Source: a virus (lineage: Duplodnaviria; Caudoviricetes). From it: 38,820 nt of DNA. The position numbers were made by a program, and so were the translations under genes. Below the pieces are notes generated by a model that saw nothing but the letters and a program-made list of their open reading frames with translations, ran no database searches and had not been told where the DNA came from. Shown here in pieces: positions 202 to 741 of this stretch (position 1 is the stretch's first letter; every line of letters starts with the position of its first letter). The stretch spans positions 1-38,820 of the IMG/VR virus record IMGVR_UViG_3300050161_000104, one strand, 5' to 3'.

Positions 202-741
202 TCATGTCCAGTTCCTTCCTGAAACTCCCCGCAACTGCCGACGCGGGAACAATATCATTTGCAGCACTTCTTTGGCGGCGCGGCGTAGTGCGAACGGGTC
301 TTTGCTGCCGTTCGGTTTCAATCCGGCGGCGAACATGCCGACCAGCGTGTCGATCCGGTCTGCTAGGGCCAACGCCTTCGTGACCGGTGCAATCTCACCC
401 CCGTGCGGACCTTCCCAAACCACAGGCATCCGTTCCACCATGAACCGGGCCAACGCGGGGAGGTGATGTTCGGCGGATATAGGTTGATTTATTGCAGCTT
501 CCTCGAATGCAGGCCACACGCTGGCCATCGCCTCGAAATCGTCAATCAACAGATCGAATGCGCGCCAAGGACTATCTGCATTCTGACCGTGCTTGCGCAG
601 GAAGTCGGAACCAAACGAAATCAACCAACGCGCGCCGCCTTGTTCGCTACCATCATTGGCGACCGCCATCCCAACAGCGCGAACGAACGGCCCGGACGGA
701 ATCGCATCGGCTGCGTTTTGCCAAGCTGGTTCATAGGTCAT
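202..741 (-). CDS. Phage protein with a C-terminal segment resembling the HD domain of glycyl-tRNA synthetase beta subunit
   Basis: aa 118-164 [47 protein letters not shown] match the GlyS signature A-x-A-D-K-x-D-T-L-x-G-x-F...[14 protein letters not shown] overlaps at both ends. Confidence 0.8.

Follow-up and report, generated by a model that had tools for sequence, protein, structure and literature searches.

A phage-borne protein family carrying the H18-loop-H19 element of the glycyl-tRNA synthetase beta subunit, predicted to bind tRNA-Gly

The window, that is the whole stretch of DNA analysed, is a virus record of 38,820 bases with a completeness of 89%. Its plus strand carries terminase, portal, capsid and lysozyme genes, and at the left end a series of small genes is found on the minus strand. 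The first-pass annotation had placed in this series a 179-aa open reading frame with a motif of the glycyl-tRNA synthetase (GlyRS) beta subunit (GlyS) at aa 118-164, and its coordinates were confirmed. The features of the gene and its surroundings are given below.

202..741, minus strand: gene of the 179-aa family member (P0001), from the ORF and its translation; family median 177 aa
750..754, minus strand: Shine-Dalgarno-like AAGGA, 9-13 nt 5' of the ATG, read directly from the sequence
520..741, minus strand: aa 1-74, family-specific helices, from the model and the alignment
418..519, minus strand: aa 75-108, helices likely equivalent to GlyS H20-H21, from hhalign profile comparison
430-432, minus strand: codon of R104, a residue present in 67 of 68 sequences and aligned with E. 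coli R531
391..417, minus strand: aa 109-117, variable linker (P106-A127 spacing 17-37, mode 21)
250..390, minus strand: aa 118-164, H18-loop-H19 of the GlyS HD domain (E. coli 446-492), from Pfam and pairwise alignment
280..309, minus strand: aa 145-154, loop equivalent to the acceptor-stem-reading loop of GlyS, residues numbered through the E. coli GlyS alignment
202..249, minus strand: aa 165-179, low-confidence tail of the model; the final six codons are read-through beyond the TAA (codon 220-222) at which the L094 allele ends
738..1094, minus strand: upstream ORF, ATGA-coupled, without a family; other DNA stands in its place in the L094-type allele
125..205, minus strand: downstream 26-aa ORF, ATGA-coupled, probably a remnant, from ORF reading

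The gene is flanked by ATGA overlaps at 738-741 and 202-205. The coupling at both ends that had been proposed is thus present in the letters of the window, but the downstream partner has only 26 aa and its overlap is allele-specific, because in a close allele, that of L094, a TAA stands in place of the window's TCA and ends the frame six codons sooner. The two alleles co-occur, and in them the neighbours were swapped while the family gene was kept. The flanking DNA differs on both sides, at 128-214 and from 769 onward in the window and at 9900-9990 and 10514-10850 in L094, the gene being common to both. One contig fuses 237 to 1235 and omits most of the gene; its side is 48 letters long and may come from another organism. 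An assembly chimera was ruled out, as contigs from four runs cover the gene in two alleles with no indel inside it; in this check X1 is possibly the source sample, and none of the pieces listed covers the stretch from end to end by itself. RNA runs that contain the stretch were looked for, and none was listed. Promoter and terminator signals were only at chance level, and acceptor-like hairpins near the gene had no position in common across 7 loci, with none in the window.

The GlyS motif was found to be real. Residues 119-164 matched Pfam PF02092 with an E value of 3.1e-16 (59.8 bits, cut-off 29.2), the match being limited to profile positions 436-481 of 536, and the alignment of aa 118-164 with E. 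coli GlyS 446-492 was gap-free. Five solved GlyRS sequences also matched (E 2e-10 to 2e-6), and against 74 GlyS segments the best identity of aa 118-164 was 68% for the window gene and up to 77% in the family. The alignment gave the equivalences G145=G473, S146=D474, D148=D476, R153=R481 and R154=R482. The E. coli GlyRS-tRNA-Gly structure, as described in excerpts of PMC9908026, has the H18-H19 loop and the start of H19 entering the acceptor stem's major groove, and base pairs 1-4 and U73 of tRNA-Gly contacted from the HD domain by G473, D474, D476, R481, R482, R531 and A439. According to the same excerpts, pairs 1-4 are read by G473, D474 and D476 (backbone) together with R481, U73 is read by D476, the tRNA backbone is held by A439, R482 and R531, and deletion of the loop lowers the tRNA-dependent step. 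A Ser at position 474 was described in part of PMC10464925 as having equivalent function. A host tRNA-Gly from the Sphingomonadaceae carries G1-C72, C2-G71, G3-C70, G4-C69 and U73. Judged by alignment, what was captured is H18-loop-H19, the part which reads the acceptor end of tRNA-Gly in the solved GlyRS complex.

The pattern G-x-x-D-x-x-x-x-R-R was kept in all 69 full-length members of the family, and an alignment of 68 sequences revealed only six invariant columns, four of which are G145, D148, R153 and R154. Because the first 51 members had been found with the motif in the query, the 17 members found by the N-terminal part (N-part) alone were tested separately. The five contact positions were each conserved in 17/17, whereas only 1 of 12 other GlyS-conserved positions was invariant (Fisher p 0.001; the columns are neighbours and not independent), these others being at least 90% conserved in a GlyS sample that was picked by the same motif. 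The residues D456 and D459, assigned to the HD cavity of GlyS in excerpts of PMC8464048, were relaxed in the same 17 members (10/17 and 7/17 respectively). The flanks of the loop also drifted, position 469 being Glu in 65% of GlyS against Leu in 50% of the family, and position 472 Thr in 86% against Asn in 58%. The excerpts of PMC9908026 further state that G473, D474 and D476 contact the tRNA by backbone atoms and that the D476 side chain caps helix H19; part of the loop conservation may therefore be structural, and the side-chain contacts are the two arginines only. Among the roles offered by the first-pass annotation, a repurposed tRNA-Gly-binding module is nevertheless the best predicted reading, because the residues kept are the tRNA contacts named in those excerpts.

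The family comprises at least 69 proteins of 153-204 aa. The search of 5.8 billion proteins gave 611 matches among 952 candidates. Among the 120 matches listed, 51 covered 80-97% of the query (163-204 aa; one at 96% identity, the others at 41-61%), and the remaining 69 covered 25-67%, the 15 inspected being GlyS pieces or motif-only proteins. A profile of the N-part alone, built from 44 sequences and searched against 1.84 billion representatives, recovered 29 proteins, namely 8 known members, 17 new full-length members, two short proteins and two long ones (P0140 and P0142). The short proteins P0141 (97 aa) and P0138 (78 aa) carry the N-part only and are truncations or rare stand-alone forms. 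The N-part was joined to the GlyS loop in 25 of these 29, and as the motif pattern is present in all 69 full-length members, the two halves travel as a unit. The N-part had been overlooked as a conserved, self-folding domain that is nearly always joined to the motif.

Comparison with the L094 allele over 170 codons gave dN 0.021 and dS 0.255 (8 replacement and 26 silent changes), that is a dN/dS of 0.08; aa 1-117 had 7 replacement and 20 silent changes, and aa 118-164 had 1 and 4 respectively. Both halves are under purifying selection. For distant family pairs the silent sites were saturated. The suggestion that the gene is more than one-off transduced debris was borne out by the size of the family, and the proposed check of dN/dS below 1 came out in its favour. 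A tree built on 47 columns from 68 segments of the family and 74 of GlyS, with low support, required two changes of label and placed one long-branch member among GlyS; it is compatible with a single origin of the family. The segment nearest to each member was another member, and not any of the 74 GlyS segments, in 68/68 cases.

The distribution of the family was sparse in the collections searched. No full-length member was present in 50,697 phage records, and the N-part had no match in 72,556 plasmids. A metagenome scan of 4 of 64 parts was swamped by true glyS, all 80 kept loci bearing the motif and none being seen as a family member. With the centre genome counted each time, the gene occurred in 2/401 genomes of the family sample, 1/401 of the genus sample and 1/401 of the class sample. 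In the GTDB-wide pattern scan, which covered only a portion of the family, 4 of 61 stretches were confirmed, of which two are members and two are short GlyS-like matches. P0001 matched 0 PHROG families at E 0.01, and 0/68 members matched PADLOC at E 0.1. Five members (P0029, P0143, P0144, P0006 and P0017) carry the source label of glycine-tRNA ligase beta subunit, and the family has been hidden by such database labels ('glycine--tRNA ligase subunit beta'). A glyS annotation is also present in the record of Microcystis phage MaAM05 (MW495066.1:119848-120045).

The structure of the full protein was predicted by AlphaFold2 as all-helical (pLDDT 90, pTM 0.88), and aa 1-109 alone gave pLDDT 96 and pTM 0.87. 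Several polar residues of the N-part are strongly kept, namely N29 (68/68), N9 (67/68), D63 (66/68), E70 (60/68) and D68 (59/68), and W39 is also conserved; the 68-sequence alignment has no conserved His or Cys in this part. No known family or fold was matched by aa 1-74. Foldseek against PDB and BFVD returned nothing at E 0.001, the ESM Atlas gave no usable feature match, and the best Z scores of the VIA fold searches were 5.1, 4.1 and 5.1, the 48,161 chains compared having yielded no enzyme fold (best Z 5.1); such null searches are evidence for neither a new nor a different fold. The full model superposed poorly on 7eiv (TM 0.24, rmsd 13.7). HD chains were absent from the listed fold-search rows, and the aligners used are sequential and would miss a permuted order.

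The lack of synthetase similarity reported earlier for aa 1-115 holds for single-sequence and Pfam searches, but profile-profile comparison weakly placed aa 75-108 on GlyS H20-H21. The profile of aa 1-112 scored 22 with hhalign on the GlyS window just past H19 and 10-13 on the others of the six windows; on whole GlyS the E value was 0.024, and 0 of 60 column shuffles reached the score. R104 was aligned to the Arg which is R531 in E. coli, the sole tRNA contact within its GlyS helix. The spacing from W76 to A98 varies from 18 to 27 in the family, whereas the collinear GlyS alternative is fixed (29 in 62/66); this variation fits the variable GlyS stretch past H19 and thereby supports the H20-H21 placement over the collinear one. 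The helix order likely runs from the new helices through H20-H21 to H18-H19, which would be a circular permutation, a reading based on a weak score (E 0.024). Part of the N-part is thus probably also of GlyS origin, and convergence is a possible source of the resemblance. The half-domain of GlyS concerned has been proposed as an acceptor-arm binder (PMC8464048, excerpts). A GlyQ origin of the N-part, hinted at by a second stretch of 2.8 bits, was rejected on profile tests (E 0.12-0.23), as was an internal duplication of H18-H19 within aa 1-74 (E 0.096 and 0.058). Longer fusions of the N-part were absent among 43 candidates, which is weak evidence.

Genomic context was read at six independent loci (the window, L093/L089, L090, L095, L004 and L099) together with the near-identical L094, and 6/6 were phage or prophage. 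L093/L089 is a prophage of Sphingomonas laterariae LNB2, L090 belongs to a Sphingomonas MAG, and L099 comes from G026, a genome of the same bacterial family. The structural modules are of three kinds: the window has an SU10-type portal, L093 and L090 have phrog_52/76 tail genes, and G026 has a T7-type head. The family gene lies among small accessory genes close to replication, recombination, methyltransferase or integrase genes, and no neighbour gene is common to all loci. DNA methyltransferases occur at three loci other than the window, and the window has a weakly matching Lar-like gene. This match, at window 1534-2049(-), is to a restriction-alleviation N-terminus and falls under the Pfam cut-off (E 3e-5). 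An HNH endonuclease is encoded within the early cluster at 4920-5588(-). The three hosts checked each carry their own long glyS frame, of 769, 877 and 818 aa, separate from the family gene.

The prophage of G026 (G026:C1:1291940-1331226; L099 11941-14384, L108) spans 39 kb with T7-type head genes and lies in the 5' half of tRNA-Gly(CCC) with a 40-bp direct repeat. Its family gene stands directly after the integrase, about 450 bp from the tRNA-Gly, and a second integrase is found 3' of the tRNA. A link to tRNA-Gly integration was rejected, as it holds in one of three prophages; the association is probably due to chance because the ends of the remaining two lie close to tRNA-Ser(CGA) and tRNA-Met(CAT).

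The comparison with known systems placed GlyS (PF02092; PDB 7YSE, 7EIV) nearest to the family. The two have H18-loop-H19 (aa 118-164) in common with all named loop contacts, and probably H20-H21 too. The family proteins differ in their size (about 175 aa against about 690) and in lacking B1-B3, the anticodon domain and the alpha subunit, so that the five-domain layout of GlyS (B1, B2, B3, HD and ABD) is absent. They also differ in their new N-terminal helices, likely permuted helix order and relaxed HD cavity, and the gene is phage-borne beside an intact host glyS, unlike a glyQ-adjacent housekeeping copy. The metal-binding His-Asp doublet of HD hydrolases is absent as well, with no column above 46% His and D128 in 56/68; GlyS itself is described as lacking the doublet in excerpts of PMC8464048. 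Pfam revealed no class I or II core of a catalytic synthetase paralogue of the GluQ/EpmA type, and with the GlyQ profile at E 0.12-0.23, the earlier view that the protein cannot aminoacylate is upheld. On these sequence comparisons the family stands outside GlyS and the HD hydrolases, yet it plausibly works like the acceptor-stem reader of GlyS.

Trbp111, AlaX and GluQ are free-standing synthetase domains or paralogues, in which part of a synthetase acts alone on tRNA, and they are whole cellular domains (OB-fold, editing and catalytic). The family differs from them as an identity-reading loop on a new all-helical body, in phages. The T4 protein Vs, a valyl-tRNA synthetase modifier with unknown role and a fitness effect in minimal medium (PMC13716836, excerpts), is likewise a small phage protein at the tRNA-charging step. 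By its description Vs modifies the host enzyme, whereas a fragment of the enzyme is built into the family proteins, which are predicted to bind the tRNA. A truncated synthetase-like ORF, similar to the LysRS connective peptide, was reported in Bacillus phage v_B-Bak10 as the first case known to its authors, according to excerpts of PMC6145125. It too is a synthetase fragment in a phage, but of another synthetase and domain with 42-aa homologues, and those excerpts contain no family, selection or contact analysis. FaRel2 (toxSAS) and Mu Mom (PMC13219725, excerpts) are proteins of phage-host conflict that select tRNA-Gly; they are enzymes of other families, to which the window protein has no such match, and annotation of the scanned neighbours gave no Mom-like gene. 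In the open-licence full text of PubMed Central and bioRxiv, no paper was found on a phage GlyS fragment, on glyS in Sphingomonas prophages or on circular permutation of the GlyRS acceptor-stem reader.

The main reading, to which a probability of about 0.5 is assigned, is that a family member holds tRNA-Gly by its acceptor end, does not charge it, and most likely serves early on as a shield against host defence. Binding of tRNA-Gly by the family protein, taken by itself, is rather probable and is regarded as the best reading because selection kept the surface that identifies tRNA-Gly. In the proposed mechanism, a new helical domain would have been joined in phages to the tRNA-reading loop of host GlyS, the retained loop would grip the acceptor end of host tRNA-Gly non-catalytically, and the bound clamp would shield this end from defence toxins early in infection. 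Protection against acceptor-end toxins by a reversible shield is a tentative purpose, chosen because FaRel2-type toxins select tRNA-Gly by the same pairs and because the gene stands among likely anti-restriction genes. FaRel2 was reported in excerpts of PMC11559606 to select tRNA-Gly through acceptor pairs 1, 2, 4 and 5, and such toxins have been implicated in phage defence. The counter-defence role is thus proposed by analogy, through the acceptor-stem determinants that the toxins and the GlyS loop would have in common. The affinity may be low or modest, since in GlyRS much of the grip comes from the alpha subunit, from B1 and from the anticodon domain, and the median net charge of the family is -2. 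The GlyRS of L. plantarum requires an L-shaped tRNA (PMC10464925, excerpts).

The phage depends on GlyRS, and an acceptor-end clamp would be in competition with this enzyme as well. A close rival to the shield, though a somewhat unlikely one, is the throttling of charging: the same clamp would sit on the exact site that GlyRS requires, cut the supply of Gly-tRNA-Gly and slow host translation or tune the starvation response early in infection or induction, in keeping with the early-operon position of the gene. Phage proteins themselves need Gly-tRNA, however, while tRNA genes are absent from the window and from beside the family gene in four viral loci, and no antitoxin-like partner is conserved across the loci. 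The strongly kept polar residues of the N-part, its folding alone and its linkage to the loop would suit instead an enzyme in which the GlyS loop is an address label and the active site of the new domain cleaves, deacylates or repairs the 3' end of tRNA-Gly. Such an enzyme is unlikely in view of the missing conserved His or Cys, the absence of an enzyme fold among the chains searched and the decay of the HD-cavity residues. A wider formulation, in which either a clamp or an enzyme, rebuilt by sphingomonad phages as a permuted GlyS reader on a new helical fold, would guard or repair the tRNA-Gly 3' end against toxins, may be held only tentatively.

Mimicry of the GlyS surface was also weighed, whereby the protein would absorb a host protein, either a defence factor or a toxin, attacking or sensing GlyRS, or would poison GlyRS assembly. 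Few surfaces of GlyS are as conserved as the mimicked loop, and a protein targeting it would select the same residues; the flanks of the loop nevertheless drift from GlyS at 469 and 472 while the tRNA contacts stay, which makes such a decoy very unlikely. The dominant-negative subunit put forward in the first-pass annotation is unsupported because the alpha-binding B1 and B3 (PMC8464048, excerpts) are absent. The most improbable of the alternatives is a collinear, decayed HD domain with a structural or other role and no tRNA binding, although the tblastn alignment of aa 37-164, motif included, with five GlyS sequences is nearly gap-free, at 36-40%, and a low-confidence Atlas model of aa 2-112 reached TM 0.54 to a GlyS cluster, under the bar of the tool. 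The N-part profile scored 11 on the collinear GlyS window against 22 on the H20-H21 window, the confident model superposed poorly on 7eiv, the helix spacing differs from the fixed one of GlyS, and the selective retention of the tRNA contacts would be left unexplained.

Against immunity that targets tRNA, phages are known to use spare tRNA genes and repair ligases. If the shield reading holds, the family would be a protein counterpart to the tRNA genes by which other phages evade acceptor-end defences. A phage protein that binds a single tRNA by reusing a synthetase identity loop would add a different type of tool, be its effect shielding, starvation or modification. The family is a predicted natural minimal reader of tRNA-Gly identity (G1-C72, C2-G71, U73), and it would allow a test of whether the loop is sufficient for recognition outside the tetramer and whether occupancy of the site inhibits bacterial GlyRS. 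Inhibition of bacterial GlyRS away from the active site has been proposed as a strategy in excerpts of PMC9908026.

Further observations were made elsewhere in the window. Four large late ORFs (1010, 571, 874 and 941 aa) at 25522-35733(+) have no Pfam family, and the final two have no PHROG match either. The gene at 9037-9651(+) has a weak nucleotidyltransferase PHROG match (E 6e-4) and is flanked by genes for a PD-(D/E)XK nuclease and an AAA_25 protein. A GroES-like (Cpn10) gene at 17154-17513(+) directly follows the portal gene (Pfam E 2.5e-9).
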